A DNA stretch of 64,000 bases, taken from the NCBI GenBank assembly GCA_017465885.1, contig JAFTVG010000014.1, positions 6,819 through 70,818 on the forward strand, in the 5' to 3' direction. The position numbers and the translations under genes were made by a program. The notes beneath the pieces are model-generated. The model worked only from the letters and a program-made list of their open reading frames with translations. It was not told where the DNA came from and ran no database searches. Positions 5,801-38,801 of the stretch are shown piece after piece. Each line of letters begins with the position of its first letter. Position 1 is the stretch's first letter. The stretch comes from Clostridia bacterium. Lineage in GTDB: Bacteria; Bacillota; Clostridia; Oscillospirales; CAG-272.

Positions 5801-8800
5801 CAGCCTGACCTGCAGGGGTCATCAAAGAACCGTACTGATCCTTTGCACCAAGCTCGGACAGGTACGTTCCGTCGGTGAACTTCAGGTCGATGACCACGCG
5901 GCAGGAGGTGTATTCGTAATCGTAGGAATGAATGTTGAACAGACCCGGGAAGATCACGTAGCTCAGTCTTGTGTTCTTGGTTACGGGAATGGACAGATCC
6001 TTGAAGATCACGTTCTTGGCGTAGGTCTTGTCGGTTGCGGTCTGCTCGCCGTATACGGCAAGGCATCTGAAGCCGCTCCACGCACCGGGAGTGTTGCACT
6101 CGGTGGCAATGGGACCAAAGCCGATCTCGGTGTTCATACCGGGGATCTCCTCGGGGATCAGGCTCTCGTCAAGCTGGGTATATAGGGTCAGCTCGGAGAA
6201 CTGGGTGTGGGCGTTGCCGCCGTTTTCAAGAACCTCCAGCTTGTAGTAGAGGTAGGAGGTGGCGTTGGCAATACCGAAGAGCTGCTCCTCAAAATAGTCG
6301 GAGAACTCCACGCCGGTACGGCTGTCAAGCTTTACCCAATCGGTGCCGTCCACAGAGCCGTAGAAGTTCCACTTTCTGGGGCTTCTGGAGATGTGGTCGT
6401 TGGCGGAGGTGATAGAATAGCCCTTCACCACCCGGGATTCCTTCAGTGCGAAGACCACGGTGAAAGTGGAGCCCGAGCAGACCATCTTGGTAGAGGTCTT
6501 GCCGTCAAAGAGGTTTGCCTTGGACTCGCCGCCGCCAAGGTCTTCCGAGCCAGAAACGGTGGAAGCATCCACCTCTGCCTTTACGGGTTTAGCTTCCTCT
6601 TCCTCCACCTTCGCGGAAGGATCTACAAAGAGCTGCCACTCGGAGAACTGCACCACCTGCAGACCCACCGCGTCTTGTCCTACGTTGGAGGTAACGTCCA
6701 GCTTGTAGTAGAGATACTCGGTGGTGTTGTTGAAGGTGTAGGTGTAGTAGGTATTTCTTTCGGGCATATCCTCGTCGCTGCGCACGTCAAGGGCTACCCA
6801 GTTCTCGCCATCGTTTGATCCGTAGAGTGTCCAGTCCTTGGGGTCTCTGGGATCGTGGTCGTTGGCAGAAGCGATCTTGTACATATTCACTGCCGCAGGT
6901 GCGGTCAGCTTTGCGGATACCCACAGAGTGGTGGTGTGGGGGATGCACACCTTGGAGTCTACCGATCCGTCAAAGATCTGCAGAATGCCCTGACCGCCGT
7001 CAAGAGCGGCAGAGCCCTTTACGGTGGAGGTGTCTACAGTCTGTTTTTCGGGCTCGGGCTTCTCTTCTTCGGCGGTCTCTGCAACGAAGAGCTGCCACTC
7101 GGAGAACTGTACCACCTGCAGACCCACCGCATCCTGTCCTACGTTGGAGGTAACGTCCAGCTTGTAGTAGAGATACTCGGTAGTATTGTCGAAGGTGTAG
7201 GTGTAGTAGGTATTTCTTTCGGGCATATCCTCGTCGCTGCGCACGTCAAGGGCTACCCAGTTCTCGCCATCGTTTGATCCGTAGAGCGTCCAGTCCTTGG
7301 GGTCTCTGGGATCATGGTCGTTGGCAGAAGCGATCTTGTACATATTAACTGCCGCAGGTGCGGTCAGCTTTGCGGATACCCACAGAGTGGTGGTGTGGGG
7401 GATGCACACCTTGGAATCTACCGATCCGTCAAAGATCTGCAGAATGCCCTGACCGCCGTCAAGAGCGGCAGAGCCCTTTACGGTGGAGGTGTCTACAGTC
7501 TGATTTTCGGGCTCGGCGACCTGCTCCTCTTCGGAAACGTATTCAAGCTGCAGCTCGGCAAACTGAATAAGGTCGTAGCCCCAAGGGTCAAGACCGTGAT
7601 TTGCGGTCACTTCCAGCTTGTAGTATTCGTAAGACTCTTCGTTTTCAAAGCCAAAGGCGTAAAGGGTCTTTCTGTCTGGCAGATCGATATTTTCGCGGTC
7701 ATCAAGAAGGGTCCAGCTCTCGCCGTCCTTTGAGCCGTAAAGCTTCCAGCTCTTGGGGTCTCTTGCGGGAGCGTCGGAAGCCGTACCGATAACGTAGCCG
7801 TTTACCACAGCGGAGGCGACCAGCTTCACGGACACCCACATAGAGCCGTTATAGGTGGTGCACAGCTTGCTGTCAAGGCTGCAGTCGAACAGCTTGTCAA
7901 GCCCTTCGCCTGCATTTGAAACCTCAGAGCCTTTTACGGTAGAAGCGTCCACTTGGACCTCTACCTGCTCTTCAGCCGCTTCGCTCTTGTATCCGAACTT
8001 CAATTCGGACATATGGGTGATGTTCAGTCCCACGTTATCGGTGCCGACGGCGTTCATCTCCGCCAGCTTATAATAAAGATATTCGGTGGTGTTTTCAAAG
8101 GTATAGGTCTTGGTCTCGAAGAAGTTTGCAAAGGTCTCCTCTTCTCTTGCATCAAGCAGATCCCAGCTTGCGCCGTCCTTTGAGCCGTAAAGCTTCCAGC
8201 TCTTGGGGTCACGCTTGTGATGGTCGTTGCAAACCGAGACAGAATAGAAGTTTGCCGCAAAGGCTTCCTTCAACTTCACCGATACCCAGACGTTCACGTT
8301 GCCGTCTGCGATCCACTTGGTGGAGGTGGCGCCGTCAAACAGATTTGCCTTCACCTCGGTACCGTTCAAGTCCTTGGTGCCGTCGTAGCTGTCGATAGCA
8401 GGATAGCTCACGCTGGAATCCACGTAGCCTTCGCCGCCATCTTCAAAGGACTCGGTGAAGAGATCCAGATTTGAAAACTGGGTCAGGCTTCCGCCGCAGT
8501 TGGAGGTCACTTCAAACTTGTACCATTTGAAAGCCTTCTTGTTTTCAAAGCCAAAGGTCTTGGTCTGCTGACGGGAGGTGAAGGACACACCCTCACGCAC
8601 GTCAAGGGAGACCCAGCTCTCTCCGTCCTTGGAGCCAAAGAGCGTCCAGTTCTTGGGGTCTCTTGCTGGCTCGTCATTTGCAGAAGCAATAGAATAGGAA
8701 CGAACCACTGCTTCCTTATCCAGCGCAAAGACAACGTACACGTTTGAACCGGTAGACAGGAACTTGGTGCCGGTCTTGCCGTCAAACAGATTGTATTTGC

Positions 8801-11494: not shown

Positions 11495-11785
11495 ATCCTC
11501 TCTCCTCACATATAACTATAACGTAGTAATTTGTTACGCACGACGCTGACCGAAACAGAGCTGCAAGCCGCAAAAGGGGCAAACATCCTTCTCGGTTTCA
11601 TAAAAAGACAGTCTTCTATTAGTAAAATCATTTTAACAAAAAAGCACCCCTTCTGTCAACAAATCAAAAAAAGAACTTTTAAGCCGTTTTCCCGTCTTCC
11701 CTCTACCCTTCGTAGAGATACCCGCAATACAGCAAAAAAATGCACTCTTTGCCATTGTTTTAATTAGAGGCAGCTCAGATCGCGC

Positions 11786-11819
11786 AAAAAAAGAACGAAG
11801 CGTTTGCTTCGTTCTTTTT
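11786..11819. terminator. bidirectional terminator hairpin
   Basis: AAAAAAAGAACGAAGC-GTTT-GCTTCGTTCTTTTT. Confidence 0.7.
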
Positions 11820-11883
11820 GGCTATGGGCTACAAAAAAGATATTTTCGGCAGTTTTGTGTATGACTTCGAGCTCTTACAGAAA

Positions 11884-12050
11884 ATGAAATCCTTGCTGAC
11901 GCAAGGATGAAATCAGCTAACGCTGATGAAATCTTCGGCTTTGCCTCAGATGAAATTAAATCCACCCATCCGCCGTCGAGGCGGATTTCACCCAACGAAG
12001 TTGGATTTCATCGTCGAAGACGATTTCACCCACCCGCAAGGGAAGATTTA
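11884..12050. repeat. inverted array of eight heptamers (4 x TGAAATC then 4 x GATTTCA-like) interleaved with mini-hairpins
   Basis: TGAAATC/T at 11885, 11908, 11927 and 11951. GATTTCA at 11985, 12004 and 12022, and GATTTAG at 12045. Spacing is 18-24 bp. Intervening stems are CTTGC/GCAAG, AGC/GCT, ATCCGCC/GGCGGAT, CCAAC/GTTGG, TCGTC/GACGA and CCC/GGG. Confidence 0.8.
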
Positions 12051-12054
12051 GTTG

Positions 12055-12088
12055 AAAACGACAGATTCCTGCCGGAATCTGTCGTTTT
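12055..12088. terminator. bidirectional terminator abutting the 3' end of tRNA-Leu
   Basis: AAAACGACAGATTC-CTGCCG-GAATCTGTCGTTTT, a 14-bp perfect stem with U-runs on both strands. Confidence 0.8.
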
Positions 12089-12089
12089 C

Positions 12090-12175
12090 TGGTGCGAGAG
12101 ACGGGACTTGAACCCGTACGGTGTAAACCACACGCCCCTCAAACGTGCGCGTCTGCCAGTTCCGCCACTCTCGCA
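12090..12175 (-). tRNA. tRNA-Leu (anticodon GAG), class II with long variable arm, CCA encoded
   Basis: Reverse complement reads GCGAGAG..CACGT-TTGAGGG-GCGTG..ACGGGTTCAAGTCCCGT-CTCTCGC-ACCA. Acceptor 7 bp. Anticodon loop UUGAGGG. T-loop TTCAAGT. Confidence 0.9.
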
Positions 12176-37430: not shown

Positions 37431-37507
<77 letters not shown>

Positions 37508-37543
37508 AAAAGAAAAGTCGCGCAAGCGGCTTTTTCTTTTTGT

Positions 37544-37672
37544 ACTTTTCACTATTCTCTTTTCACTCTTCACTTTTCTCTAAATCTCCCGCGCGACTTT
37601 TCCAGAGAAGAGATAAGAGGGAAAAGAGAAAAGAAAAGGTAGCCTTTCTCCCTTTGGTCGAAAAGCATTGAT
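37544..37672. repeat. structured intergenic repeat, copy A (diverged)
   Basis: Pyrimidine arm ACTTTTCACTATTCTCTTTTCACTCTTCACTTTTCTC, a loop, then purine arm GAGAAGAGATAAGAGGGAAAAGAGAAAAGAAAAGGTA. It shares CTTTTCACTATTC and AAAAGGTA with copies B and C. Confidence 0.7.
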
Positions 37673-37696
37673 TTTTAGTTAAAATCGTGGTATAAT
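37668..37696 (+). promoter_or_regulatory. promoter (extended -10) for the first island module
   Basis: TTGATT (37668-37673), 17-nt spacer, TGG-TATAAT (37688-37696). Confidence 0.65.
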
Positions 37697-37721
37697 CATA
37701 TTACAGAGTGAGGTGAAGACA

Positions 37722-38069
37722 ATGAATAGCCCATTACTTGAAAAGTCTATGGACTTTGCAACGCAGATTGTACTTTTCTACGAGGAGTTTTCAAAGAGTA
37801 AAAAGGATACGACGATCGCAAAGCAATTATTGCGTTCTGCTACAAGTGTAGGTGCGAACATAAACGAAGCGATTTACGGAAACAGTAAGGCAGATTTTAT
37901 TTCTAAATTACATATTTCTCTCAAAGAAACGGGCGAAAGTATTTATTGGCTCACCTTGTTGAAGCGCACAAATTTAATTGTTTATGATTTTGATAAGTTG
38001 CTTTCGTTAGCCGAAGAAATCAAACGAATGCTGATCGCTTCTCTTAATACTGCTAAGGAAAACAAATGA
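37722..38069 (+). CDS. four-helix-bundle protein (23S rRNA-IVS protein / Avd-like family)
   Basis: LLRSATSVGANINEAIYGNSKADFISKLHISLKETGESIYWLTLL is the hallmark of this family. SD GAGGTG lies 6 nt before the ATG at 37722. AT-rich. Confidence 0.8.
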   Translation: MNSPLLEKSMDFATQIVLFYEEFSKSKKDTTIAKQLLRSATSVGANINEAIYGNSKADFISKLHISLKETGESIYWLTLLKRTNLIVYDFDKLLSLAEEIKRMLIASLNTAKENK

Positions 38070-38500
38070 AAACTCTTTATACTGCTTTCAAAGGTAAAAA
38101 TAACACCTCTTATCAGCTTGTTTCACGCATTGATAAGAATTCACTGTTTTTAACCAATTCTTTTACCGGCCTTGAAAAAGATATTACGAGCCTTGATTGT
38201 GATTTTGATACCGTGTATATGTTTGGCATTGACAAAAACTTGGTTAATGAAATTCGTATAGATCTTTGTGCTTGTTATAATTGTGAGCATATATGTACTG
38301 ATTTTTATTTGTTGCCTTTTGAAAGAAAACTAATCGAATCAAACATTCCATATTCTATTTCAAGTATTCCAACCAAATATTTATGTAATGCAGCTTATTA
38401 TCACATGTTGAAAAAGAATTCAAATACCGTTTTTATTCATATTCCGTCACTAAGGGGTATGAACGAAACGTTAATGAACAGATTGGCAGAGATGTTTTGA
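38066..38500 (+). CDS. short pyroglutamyl-peptidase (C15)-like protein, 144 aa
   Basis: ATGA overlap with the upstream gene. KYLCNAAYYHML and VFIHIPSL align with the Cys and His segments of Pcp (TFVCNHLFY, GFIHIPY). About 70 aa shorter than canonical Pcp. Confidence 0.45.
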   Translation: MKTLYTAFKGKNNTSYQLVSRIDKNSLFLTNSFTGLEKDITSLDCDFDTVYMFGIDKNLVNEIRIDLCACYNCEHICTDFYLLPFERKLIESNIPYSISSIPTKYLCNAAYYHMLKKNSNTVFIHIPSLRGMNETLMNRLAEMF

Positions 38501-38508
38501 AATGCATC

Positions 38509-38692
38509 TTTTTCGGCACCTCTACTCAAAAAAAATCCTCGGACTTGTTCCGAGGATATTTTTTTACCTCTTCACTTTTCACTCTTCACTCTTCACTTTT
38601 TTCCCTTCGCAGATGAATTTTTTTGGAAGTAATAAGTAAGAGTGAATAGTGAAAAGGTATTTGATGTAGCTTTTTGTCACGGCAAAAAGCAT
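38509..38692. repeat. structured intergenic repeat, copy B
   Basis: Order of parts: ATCTTTTTCGG; terminator hairpin ATCCTCGG-ACTTGTT-CCGAGGAT + T7; pyrimidine arm CTTCACTTTTCACTCTTCACTCTTCAC; ~45-nt loop; complementary arm AAGAGTGAATAGTGAAAAGG; hairpin GCTTTTTG-TCACGG-CAAAAAGC. Positions 38527-38583 are identical to 40838-40894. Confidence 0.85.
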
Positions 38693-38801
38693 TTTTCGTT
38701 TTCTCACTTTTTCAAAACTCGAAAAATAGTCAAAATAAAAAGATATCATTTCCCCAAAACGACCTTTGGGGAGGACTTGAACTAAATACTTGAGCTTTTA
38801 G

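Follow-up and report, generated by a model that had tools for sequence, protein, structure and literature searches.

Gut-1 (Rfam RF01706) was described as a probable noncoding RNA represented only by human-gut metagenome sequence, and no function was proposed for it (Weinberg et al. 2010, PMC2864571). In the literature searched, it was mentioned only in this original description. The original seed alignment shows a tRNA, a terminator, a GUGAUAU array, and an inverted AUAUCAC array in the flanks of some members. Here we analyze a heptamer array beside a tRNA-Leu gene in contig JAFTVG010000014.1 of a Clostridia bacterium (CAG-272, Oscillospirales; assembly GCA_017465885.1). The whole 64-kb stretch of DNA examined is called the window; coordinates are positions in it, and the element is described on the minus (tRNA) strand unless stated otherwise. 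The array is one copy of Gut-1 (arm A) joined to a mirror-image partner (arm B), which makes up a full two-armed element, and it is a new member of this known family and not a new kind of feature. Arm A resembles the published motif in having four (G/A)UGAAAU heptamers with three covarying hairpins between them and in coming from uncultured gut Clostridia. The Rfam model differs in that it represents arm A only, without the upstream hairpin, the long-range S1:S3 helix, or the mirrored arm B, and also without the tRNA linkage, the PF05635 neighbor, and the cassette right end described below.

The second family of concern is PF05635 (23S_rRNA_IVP), which is met as a small insertion at scattered sites, cas loci among them (PMC3936711), and which resembles Avd, a protein of diversity-generating retroelements (DGRs) (PMC10053308). 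Avd, which forms a pentameric barrel with a positive charge and is described as "similar to S23 ribosomal proteins," makes contact with a defined "Avd-binding RNA" (bioRxiv 10.1101/2023.10.23.563531). The loci described here share with the intervening sequences (IVSs) of 23S rRNA genes that carry an S23p/PF05635 open reading frame (ORF) the combination of a PF05635 gene with inverted-repeat, hairpin-rich noncoding DNA at highly expressed stable-RNA genes. They differ in that the cassette sits after the 3' CCA of a tRNA or transfer-messenger RNA (tmRNA) gene and not inside 23S helices, in that the cassettes show no sign of excision from RNA, and in that the window copy appears to have lost its gene. 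The likeness to Avd and the DGR Spacer RNA lies in a PF05635-like basic pentameric barrel that contacts a structured noncoding RNA, which is a precedent for the pairing of such a protein with an array. DGRs differ in their reverse transcriptase, template repeat, and variable repeat, none of which was seen in the loci examined, and Gut-1 arms differ from the Spacer RNA in being repeats of one heptamer.

Results

A scan of the window at the Rfam gathering threshold (50 bits for Gut-1) gave a match at 11980-12054 on the minus strand with a score of 70.2 bits (E = 5.6e-12), and the alignment of arm A covered the model from end to end (positions 1 to 77). A permissive scan gave a second, subthreshold match of 42.3 bits at 11882-11961 on the plus strand. 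A first-pass annotation of this DNA had described four TGAAATC heptamers followed by four inverted copies, interleaved with mini-hairpins, and had named a match to a known family as the result that would remove their novelty; Gut-1 is that match. The anatomy that it gave was borne out. The four-plus-four inverted heptamers and all of the listed mini-hairpins were present, the fourth right-hand copy being degenerate; exact copies lay 18 to 24 nt apart, with start-to-start distances of 23, 19, and 24 nt among the left copies and of 20 and 18 nt among the right ones; and the perfect complementarity of GATGAAATC and GATTTCATC held. The conserved heptamer unit is RTGAAAT, and the base that follows it in the plus-strand ATGAAAT copies is C in the first three and T in the fourth.

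Six exact TGAAATC/GATTTCA copies, with hairpins between them, lay inside 145 bp. Across both strands of the 64-kb window, TGAAATC occurred 20 times versus 14.7 +/- 4.2 times in shuffled sequence and was not overrepresented outside the array, while ~0.03 copies were expected within the 145 bp that held 6 of the 20. This clustering speaks against the chance repeat that the first-pass annotation had considered. The array (11875-12090) folded far better than shuffled sequences on both strands (z = -8.6 and -7.8), and the minimum-energy folds of both strands consisted mainly of local hairpins. Together with the curation of the family as RNA, these results agreed with the view of a noncoding, highly structured region. 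The 148-aa ORF predicted over the region was rightly judged not credible, as it crosses the hairpin array and, on the opposite strand, the tRNA gene.

Relatives were collected by pattern scans. A two-arm pattern detected at least 120 loci in metagenomes, corresponding to at least 116 unique elements (counts of downstream features are among the matches listed). A loop-anchored pattern applied to viral contigs detected 74 loci, about 20 of which had real arrays, with 18 composites, and plain three-heptamer patterns (three scans of viral contigs) detected mostly coding tandem repeats, with ~3% true arrays among the matches listed. In total, ~135 (>130) loci shared the architecture of the window element, in gut and rumen metagenomes and in the host flanks of viral-contig records. 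All had one orientation, with arm A on the strand of the upstream gene and beside the upstream terminator. In 20 relatives tested with Rfam, arm A was hit on the tRNA strand in every case, and arm B reached the Gut-1 threshold, on the opposite strand, at one locus.

The shared layout starts with a stable, usually terminator-type hairpin, followed by segment S1, which consists of (C)GAAAU and a variable hexamer. Next come hairpin 0, whose 3' arm is segment S2, and three GUGAAAU heptamers alternating with short hairpins, which complete arm A. The center repeats S2 and adds AUUUC, the two together forming S3, and arm B consists of four AUUUCAC heptamers alternating with longer hairpins.

Covariation, a check proposed in the first-pass annotation, was examined in an alignment of 30 diverse elements that included the window (alignment A1). 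The stems covaried. Overall, they were 87 to 98% paired, with double changes in 27 of 32 pairs; the observed covariation score was reached by none of 500 shuffles, and pairing was halved when partners were slid by one column. The three arm-B hairpins were 87 to 92% paired, and all 21 of their pairs had changed on both sides. Hairpin 0 also showed covariation in A1, and the arm-A hairpins were 92% Watson-Crick paired over 123 unique listed sequences. A long-range helix between S1 (12040-12050) and S3 (11957-11967) showed 98.5% pairing, and 6 of its 11 pairs had changed on both sides. In the window it comprises nine Watson-Crick pairs and one G.U pair out of 11; the GAAAU:AUUUC part of the helix is invariant elsewhere, and only the window has a double change in it, from G-C to U-A. 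A long-range helix that closes a multihairpin junction, as had been suggested, thus has covariation behind it. The local alternative, S1:S2, was equally supported (97.8% paired), and S1, S2, and S3 covaried as a triple in at least six sequence classes (e.g., AAAUCC, CCGUCC, CCACCC, UUGCCC, and UCGCC). This pattern suggests that arm A can be either open, with hairpin 0 formed by S1:S2, or closed by S1:S3 as a three-hairpin multiloop and that the two helices compete. A hand count of the listing gave ~10 G.U to 3 A.C pairs in S1:S3 on the tRNA strand, and in L566, the closest relative of the window element, S1:S3 by reading of the sequence needs three G.U pairs.

The heptamers behaved differently from the stems. 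They were >95% identical across the 123 unique listed elements, while every stem varied. An ATATCAC variant at the second arm-B position was present in 17 of 123 elements and was never matched by GUGAUAU in arm A. Because the heptamers are nearly invariant and show no compensation between the arms, they look like recognition sites for a trans-acting factor and not like pairing partners; the only heptamer-like pairing with support was the half-site pair inside S1:S3. The pairing of left with right heptamers postulated in the first-pass annotation, and with it a "Christmas tree" whose trunk is made of heptamers, was rejected on these grounds, as minimum-energy folds also kept the local hairpins. 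Its plus-strand RNA did not hold up either, since both the strong Rfam match and the best support for the long-range helix were on the minus strand and a scan detected no promoter-like site ahead of the array on the plus strand. Two convergent small RNAs were discarded because of this missing plus-strand promoter and because arm B so rarely reached the Gut-1 threshold.

In the relatives, heptamers were spaced 16 to 32 bp apart, with modes of 18/20 bp in one arm and 24/25 bp in the other. This variable spacing and the covariation of the stems disfavor a plain double-stranded DNA (dsDNA) array. Other array types were also considered. A type III antitoxin array was rejected as the units differ in sequence, Tandem Repeats Finder (TRF) detected no tandem array, and no ToxN/AbiQ-type gene is adjacent; a CRISPR array was rejected as the repeated unit is only 7 nt long and TRF detected no CRISPR-like array in the window. 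The segment "hairpin + GUGGAUU…", which resembles type I-C repeats, varies with S1. Further likenesses of motif, namely, to a CRISPR-repeat mimic, an anticodon-loop mimic (UGAAA/UGAUA), a DnaA box, an integron core site, and Chi, were unsupported and were set aside.

The position of the elements was fixed relative to tRNA genes. A same-strand tRNA ended 42 to 79 nt before the first matched heptamer in 40 of the 94 listed loci with enough upstream sequence, and these tRNAs had 21 different anticodons; a tRNA on the opposite strand only was present in 2 of the 94. In the window, the tRNA-Leu CCA end at 12090 is abutted by a terminator-type hairpin (12054-12089). The strong terminator shared with a convergent tRNA that the first-pass annotation had placed here is a real hairpin; it follows the tRNA on the tRNA's own strand, however, its U tract is only UUUUC, and a terminator scan gave no call. 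It belongs to a AAACGACAG...CUGUCGUUU hairpin family that was found at other Gut-1 and PF05635 cassettes (L207, L364, L366, and L548-L566). Within arm B, only the last unit (11908-11889 plus a U-rich tail) was terminator-like in the minus-strand scan, and the inner units had AUUUCAU tails with three U residues.

A link to PF05635 emerged from the genes downstream of the arrays. In L274 and L402, the gene right after arm B resembles a second gene of the window (37713-38069), and Pfam assigned both this window gene (E = 3.6e-25) and the L402 gene to PF05635. A tblastn screen of the 116 unique listed elements detected a PF05635 gene in 28, on the same strand and with its start 20 to 96 nt behind the last heptamer; ~98 of the 116 have at least 600 nt of downstream sequence, and 28 of ~98 corresponds to ~29%. 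The same screen gave no PF05635 match in 680 kb of control Clostridia DNA. At most of the PF05635 loci a sigma-70-type promoter adjoins the last heptamer, while in L455 and L498 only a ribosome-binding site fits in this position. The window PF05635 protein has >3,400 homologues, with at least 120 clusters at 92 to 100% identity, and its nearest solved homologue is PDB 2RLD (E = 9e-23), an entry with five chains.

The gene of the window lies in a cassette of its own behind tRNA-Met (Table 1). Homologue contexts contained a near-identical module. Behind its terminator come an inverted repeat of pyrimidine and purine runs with TTTTCAC heptads, then a promoter that precedes the PF05635 gene, and finally a small gene overlapping the latter, whose product is a GNAT acetyltransferase in some cases and a 150-aa protein of unknown function in others. 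The module starts right after the CCA of tRNA-Leu(UAG), tRNA-Gln, tRNA-Ser, tRNA-Val, tRNA-Tyr, and tmRNA, the window tRNA-Met being the seventh such site, and the flanking genes differ. Similarity of the cassettes between loci was 97 to 100% and stopped ~60 nt after the second gene, and this last ~60-nt segment was common to cassettes with different second genes.

The window Gut-1 element carries the same end. The 62 nt that follow arm B (11822-11883) aligned to the right ends of five cassettes, at tRNA-Gln, tRNA-Ser, tRNA-Tyr, tRNA-Leu, and tmRNA loci (alignment A2), and all of the sequences diverged at the same point, with the conserved …GCCGAAAATATCTTTTTTGTAGCCCATAG followed by unrelated sequence. 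At its other end, the terminator hairpin abuts the CCA, as it does in the seven gene-carrying cassettes. The whole element spans 11822-12089 (268 bp), and no ORF of the PF05635 family was found between these positions. Because its right end matches those of PF05635 cassettes behind the CCA of tRNA and tmRNA genes, the most fitting reading of the window copy is a cassette without a gene, a head-plus-tail miniature or remnant of a tRNA-3'-end PF05635 cassette. Just beyond it lies a bidirectional terminator hairpin (11785-11820), which gave terminator-only partial Rfam matches (rli61 and ryfA) in an E-value search and which probably served tRNA-Leu as its terminator before the 268-bp element displaced it; L548, L557, and L561 also have a terminator after the right end. 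In L566, a gene-carrying cassette is followed by a close relative of the window Gut-1 element with compensatory stem changes.

On the plus strand, the right end opens a 28-codon ORF (MGYKKDIFGSFVYDFELLQK…, 11824-11910). Versions of it in the window, L556, L558, L561, L566, and L548 read M(G/R)Y(K/E)KDIFG(T/S)F(A/V)Y(E/D)FELLQ…, with conservative or synonymous differences between copies and no obvious ribosome-binding site, and could represent a microprotein or merely a conserved DNA or RNA signal. At 38500-38700 on the plus strand, a second terminator and pyrimidine/purine inverted repeat (CTCTTCA x4.3; TRF, 38568-38608) precede a PadR-like 106-aa ORF and genes for membrane proteins; this stretch looks like the head of another gene-less cassette.

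L398 and L423, both from viral contigs, agree in their tRNA, downstream flank, and arm B and yet have wholly different arm-A modules, S1, S2, and S3 included; arm A behaves as an exchangeable unit bounded by GAAAT…ATTTC. In L061 (9780-9900), arm A behind a tRNA and terminator stops after the third hairpin and enters the 3' part of a sugar-kinase-like ORF, which looks like a rearrangement breakpoint at the center of the element. Tandem Gut-1 pairs, or two copies within ~1 kb, were present in L402, L462, L467, L428, and L518, and in L518 a new Gut-1 head lies right after the terminator of a PF05635 gene; it seems that one cassette can settle behind another. L547, L549, and L551 each have a gene for a DDE_Tnp_1 transposase whose end is ~95 nt ahead of the PF05635 gene; L547, the one of the three whose upstream sequence was read, lacks the tRNA and the pyrimidine/purine inverted repeat and matches other cassettes only from the promoter-proximal hairpin on. 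In L556, a gene for a large serine recombinase lies just beyond the cassette. Other mobile DNA appears to use this spot as a hotspot.

Composites in "viral" contigs were located in flanking host DNA, past full or partial copies of a tRNA that lie next to integrases at the ends of prophages. An origin as prophage att sites was dismissed, as these composites sit in host flanks and no phage genes were found near the window array. Arrays were also present in phage head-gene operons (portal, major head, and prohead protease), as single arrays or widely spaced pairs. At least five arrays were counted in one 37.8-kb contig (L115, L379, and L412), and one of these arrays contains seven heptamers. In L249, four arrays lie within 4.5 kb; the GUGAUAU arrays start at stop codons, and the AUAUCAU arrays end just before ribosome-binding sites. 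The phage arrays are flanked by conserved inverted hairpins, GGTACACGC-TAAA-GCGTGATTGG and its mirror.

The two strands of the elements were not equivalent. Hairpin loops on the ATTTCAC strand were GNA or GNNA closed by C-G, with GNRA in 22 cases and GNYA in 20. Tandem G.A pairs were present on this strand in 34 of 222 unique listed arm-B hairpins, and also in the window (11933-11949), and none were present as the U.C mismatches that the other strand would read. Predicted stability was higher on the ATTTCAC strand, by 34:6 for arm A and 121:33 for arm B, with both RNA and DNA parameters. G.U versus A.C pairs numbered 39:32 on the one common (tRNA) strand, which was not significant, and 45:26 when each arm was read on its ATTTCAC strand.

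The coordinates of the features are collected in Table 1. The neighboring genes are housekeeping genes; those for a class II aldolase and a PfkB-type kinase flank the element at one end, and those for a DUF1846 protein and an AraC-type regulator flank it at the other. Elsewhere in the window, TRF detected a 459-bp unit repeated 1.9 times at 97% identity (6628-7516), which is probably inside a large repetitive ORF and is unrelated.

Table 1. Features of the two-armed Gut-1 element and of the PF05635 cassette in the window
Feature	Position	Strand	Basis or remark
tRNA-Leu promoter TTGACT-16-TATAAT	12231-12204	-	promoter scan
tRNA-Leu(GAG)	12090-12174	-	ARAGORN; Rfam tRNA, 48 bits
tRNA-Leu CCA end	12090-12092	-	adjoins element
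Left-end terminator-type hairpin GAAAACGACAGAUUCC-GGCA-GGAAUCUGUCGUUUUC	12054-12089	-	directly after CCA
Arm A (Gut-1 proper)	11980-12054	-	Rfam RF01706
Degenerate fourth ATTTCAC/T copy AGATTTAG	near 12045-12051	+	sequence
Arm A, degenerate heptamer and S1 UAAAUCUUCCC	12040-12050	-
Arm A, hairpin 0	12030-12045	-	S2 at 12030-12035
Hairpin CCC-GCAA-GGG	12033-12042		sequence
Arm A, X1 GUGAAAU	12023-12029	-	next hairpin 12012-12022
Arm A, X2 AUGAAAU	12005-12011	-	next hairpin 11992-12004
Arm A, X3 GUGAAAU	11985-11991	-
Exact ATTTCAC/ATTTCAT copies	11985-11991, 12005-12011, 12023-12029	+	sequence
Center	11957-11984	-	alignment A1
Center hairpin CCGCC-UCGAC-GGCGG	11970-11984	-
S3 GGGUGGAUUUA	11957-11967	-	first six bases repeat S2
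Mini-hairpins	11891-11906, 11914-11925, 11968-11986, 11992-12004, 12012-12022		sequence
Mini-hairpin	11933-11949		sequence; GGC/GCC core lengthened by tandem mismatch
Arm B	11884-11956	-	sequence
Arm B, AUUUCAU heptamers	11950-11956, 11926-11932, 11907-11913, 11884-11890	-
ATGAAAT copies	11884-11890, 11907-11913, 11926-11932, 11950-11956	+	sequence
Arm B, hairpin CU-GA-GGC AAA GCC-GA-AG	11933-11949	-	tandem G.A
Arm B, hairpin with loop GUUA	11914-11925	-
Arm B, hairpin with loop GUCA	11891-11906	-
Element right end (…CUGUAAGAGCUCGAAGUCAUACACAAAACUGCCGAAAAUAUCUUUUUUGUAGCCCAUAG)	11822-11883	-	alignment A2; BLAST of cassette ends
Bidirectional terminator hairpin AAAAAAAGAACGAAGC-GUUU-GCUUCGUUCUUUUU	11785-11820		sequence
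Gene-carrying cassette	37507-38500	+	directly after tRNA-Met(CAU) CCA; terminator first
Cassette pyrimidine/purine inverted repeat, contiguous TTTTCAC/TCTTCAC heptads	37544-37582	+	TRF period 14
Cassette promoter TTGATT-TATAAT	between inverted repeat and PF05635 gene	+
PF05635 gene	37713-38069	+	Pfam
Overlapping 144-aa gene	38066-38500	+	no Pfam hit

Discussion

The reading that we prefer, tentatively and with somewhat less than even confidence, is that the two arms are a platform that displays invariant heptamers among sequence-free hairpins, as part of a tRNA-3'-end cassette, and that a PF05635 pentamer is the most likely reader of these heptamers. The covarying hairpins, whose sequence is free to change, would clamp and space the heptamers so that these stay exposed. 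About five sites would be available per arm, three full and two partial in arm A and four full and one partial in arm B; this number fits a pentamer and is no proof of binding. The reader would be the basic, nucleic-acid-binding PF05635 protein, supplied in trans in the case of the window copy, for example, from the gene at 37713-38069. Binding could control the cassette's own promoter or leader, which adjoins arm B in the relatives, or the propagation of the cassette, and the protein could bind either folded DNA or an RNA that arises when transcription from the tRNA promoter reads through. The split of the optimal hairpins between the strands allows for either form.

A number of observations weigh against this reading. 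The link of PF05635 to the arrays is one of guilt by association, and ~70% of the composites, the window included, have no adjacent PF05635 gene. The 62-nt right end had no match behind the 116 listed metagenomic composites, which belong to another subfamily, and is thus specific to the window lineage. No syntenic copy or array was found at 80 DUF1846-homologue loci (best protein identity, 82%), which came from metagenome-assembled genomes of uncultured Clostridia and Oscillospiraceae and none of which had an array, a tRNA, or synteny. PF05635 was not found in 70 kb of array-bearing phage contigs, and the number of heptamers per phage array ranged from 3 to 7, which weakens the idea of five sites for a pentamer. 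Each arm is more stable on its ATTTCAC strand, so that no single transcript carries all of the optimal hairpins, and the strand of arm A that Rfam models is the weaker-folding one.

Two alternatives come next. The element could be a free-standing RNA or a tRNA trailer of ~230 nt, made on the minus strand by read-through from the strong tRNA-Leu promoter, in keeping with the Rfam type "Gene; sRNA"; its exposed GUGAAAU/AUUUCAU heptamers would be a sponge for some housekeeping RNA-binding protein or for a complementary RNA, S1:S2 and S1:S3 would form a conformational switch, and PF05635 would be only a neighbor. The Escherichia coli 3'ETS-leuZ (3' external transcribed spacer), a sponge, is likewise a functional RNA that rides on a tRNA transcript; the Gut-1 element differs in lying after, and not before, the first terminator. 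Curation of the family as RNA, the fixed orientation to the tRNA (40 loci versus 2), the lack of room for a separate promoter, the weak UUUUC of the upstream window terminator, the tolerance of G.U in S1:S3 on the tRNA strand, and the terminator-like last arm-B hairpin on the minus strand all agree with such a transcript. Furthermore, the AUWUCAY arrays directly before the ribosome-binding site in L455, L498, and the phage locus L249 must be in mRNA leaders. What makes this account possible but unlikely in our view is that most of the upstream hairpins are good terminators with U6 tracts, that the arm-A hairpins have UNC/UNNC loops and fold more weakly on the tRNA strand, and that the shared cassette right end and the 29% adjacency of PF05635 are left unexplained. 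ToxI, a type III antitoxin, offers another RNA comparison, being composed of tandem structured units with conserved single-stranded protein-binding tails; the Gut-1 units are not identical, and no ToxN/AbiQ-type toxin gene follows them. The other alternative takes the arms to be cassette cis-ends or recombination substrates that act as folded single-stranded DNA or cruciforms and are recognized by a recombinase, a nuclease, or reverse-transcription machinery, the mirrored arms ensuring that one good ATTTCAC arm is exposed whichever strand is single stranded. The better folding of the ATTTCAC strand in both arms, the equal frequency of GNRA and GNYA loops, the tandem G.A pairs seen on that strand only, and the shift in G.U versus A.C pairs toward it are in line with this proposal, and the stable DNA motifs d(cGNAg) and d(cGNNAg) fit these loops better than does the RNA GNRA loop. 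Such a substrate would also suit a cassette that reaches many tRNA and tmRNA 3' ends without an internal recombinase, the arm-A swap between L398 and L423, and the direct repeats, S2 and S3, that flank arm A. The energy asymmetry, however, rests largely on the same loop and G.A features and is not independent of them, and GNNA loops and tandem G.A are acceptable in RNA, too. With no transposase, integrase, or reverse transcriptase in or next to the element, with short palindromes that seldom extrude in vivo, and with many arrays in phage head operons that are hard to see as transposition ends, we consider folded DNA ends of this kind a doubtful explanation.

The remaining explanations have less in their favor. 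A bidirectional transcription insulator, built of stacked weak terminators (hairpin plus AUUUCAC), would use arm B to block read-through from the tRNA and arm A to block antisense transcription, and the next promoter would be shielded. The element always has a terminator on one side, and in many loci a promoter follows it with the -35 box right against the last heptamer; in each arm the strand with the stable loops is the one on which the hairpin precedes AUUUCAC, the last window unit being terminator-like. We think this improbable nonetheless: AUUUCAC has only three U residues, only the last unit passes the terminator scan, the U tracts of real terminators are not sequence invariant as the heptamers are, and phage arrays lie inside operons that need read-through. 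The dsDNA iteron- or centromere-like array of the first-pass annotation, bound by a ParB/VirB-type protein, draws on the motif itself, since RTGAAAT/ATTTCAY is of the P1 ParB/VirB box-A type, the VirB boxes being ATTTCAGtATGAAAT (PMC6410309), and on the direct repeats within an arm and inverted repeats between arms. This likeness is confined to the heptamer. The described boxes are dsDNA sites near par or virulence genes, whereas the Gut-1 spacing is irregular (16 to 32 bp, with modes that differ by arm and no helical phasing), the spacers are palindromes that covary as stems, which dsDNA binding does not require, the neighbors are housekeeping genes with no rep or par genes among them, and the GTGATAT variant departs from box A; we hold this array to be very improbable. 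A decaying, functionless chance repeat could point to the degenerate outer copies only and has a negligible chance of being right, as the clustering of the heptamers speaks against it and the >130 loci with stem covariation and the curated Rfam match already refute it.

Gene-less hairpin modules are familiar from pneumococcal BOX elements, from repetitive extragenic palindromes and bacterial interspersed mosaic elements (REP/BIME), and from elements like miniature inverted-repeat transposable elements (MITEs), in which variable internal units lie between complementary ends, after terminators, and which are miniatures of larger elements. The Gut-1 unit differs in being an invariant 7-mer with a sequence-free hairpin and not a copied 35- to 45-mer, in occurring once in the 64-kb window, and in having no known cognate transposase. 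Beyond the display of heptamers for a PF05635 reader, it is conceivable, though we would not expect it, that Gut-1 and its PF05635-carrying relatives are unrecognized small mobile cassettes that have no recombinase of their own and insert behind the 3' CCA of tRNA and tmRNA genes, bringing their own terminator. The pointer to mobility is indirect, namely, cassettes that are 97 to 100% identical at different tRNA and tmRNA genes with different neighbors. Such cassettes might spread via a nucleic-acid intermediate, with an arm-bound, Avd-like pentamer recruiting a reverse transcriptase or recombination machinery; a tRNA 3' end could, for instance, serve as the primer. The arms in phage head operons would, on this view, either decoy the PF05635 protein or be targeted by it.

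For annotation, the region should be labeled Gut-1 and the 148-aa ORF should be dropped. Gut-1, an orphan since 2010, now has two mirrored arms, a closing helix that may switch, and a fixed place behind tRNA genes. It also has a candidate partner in the equally orphan PF05635/23S-rRNA-IVS family, of which the only characterized relative, Avd, is an RNA-binding pentamer, and the function of both orphans becomes testable in cultured gut Clostridia. These findings raise the possibility of a new kind of cassette that targets tRNA ends, and, if the cassettes are indeed mobile, they would offer a way to account for how PF05635-bearing intervening sequences have spread in 23S rRNA genes, a long-standing puzzle.

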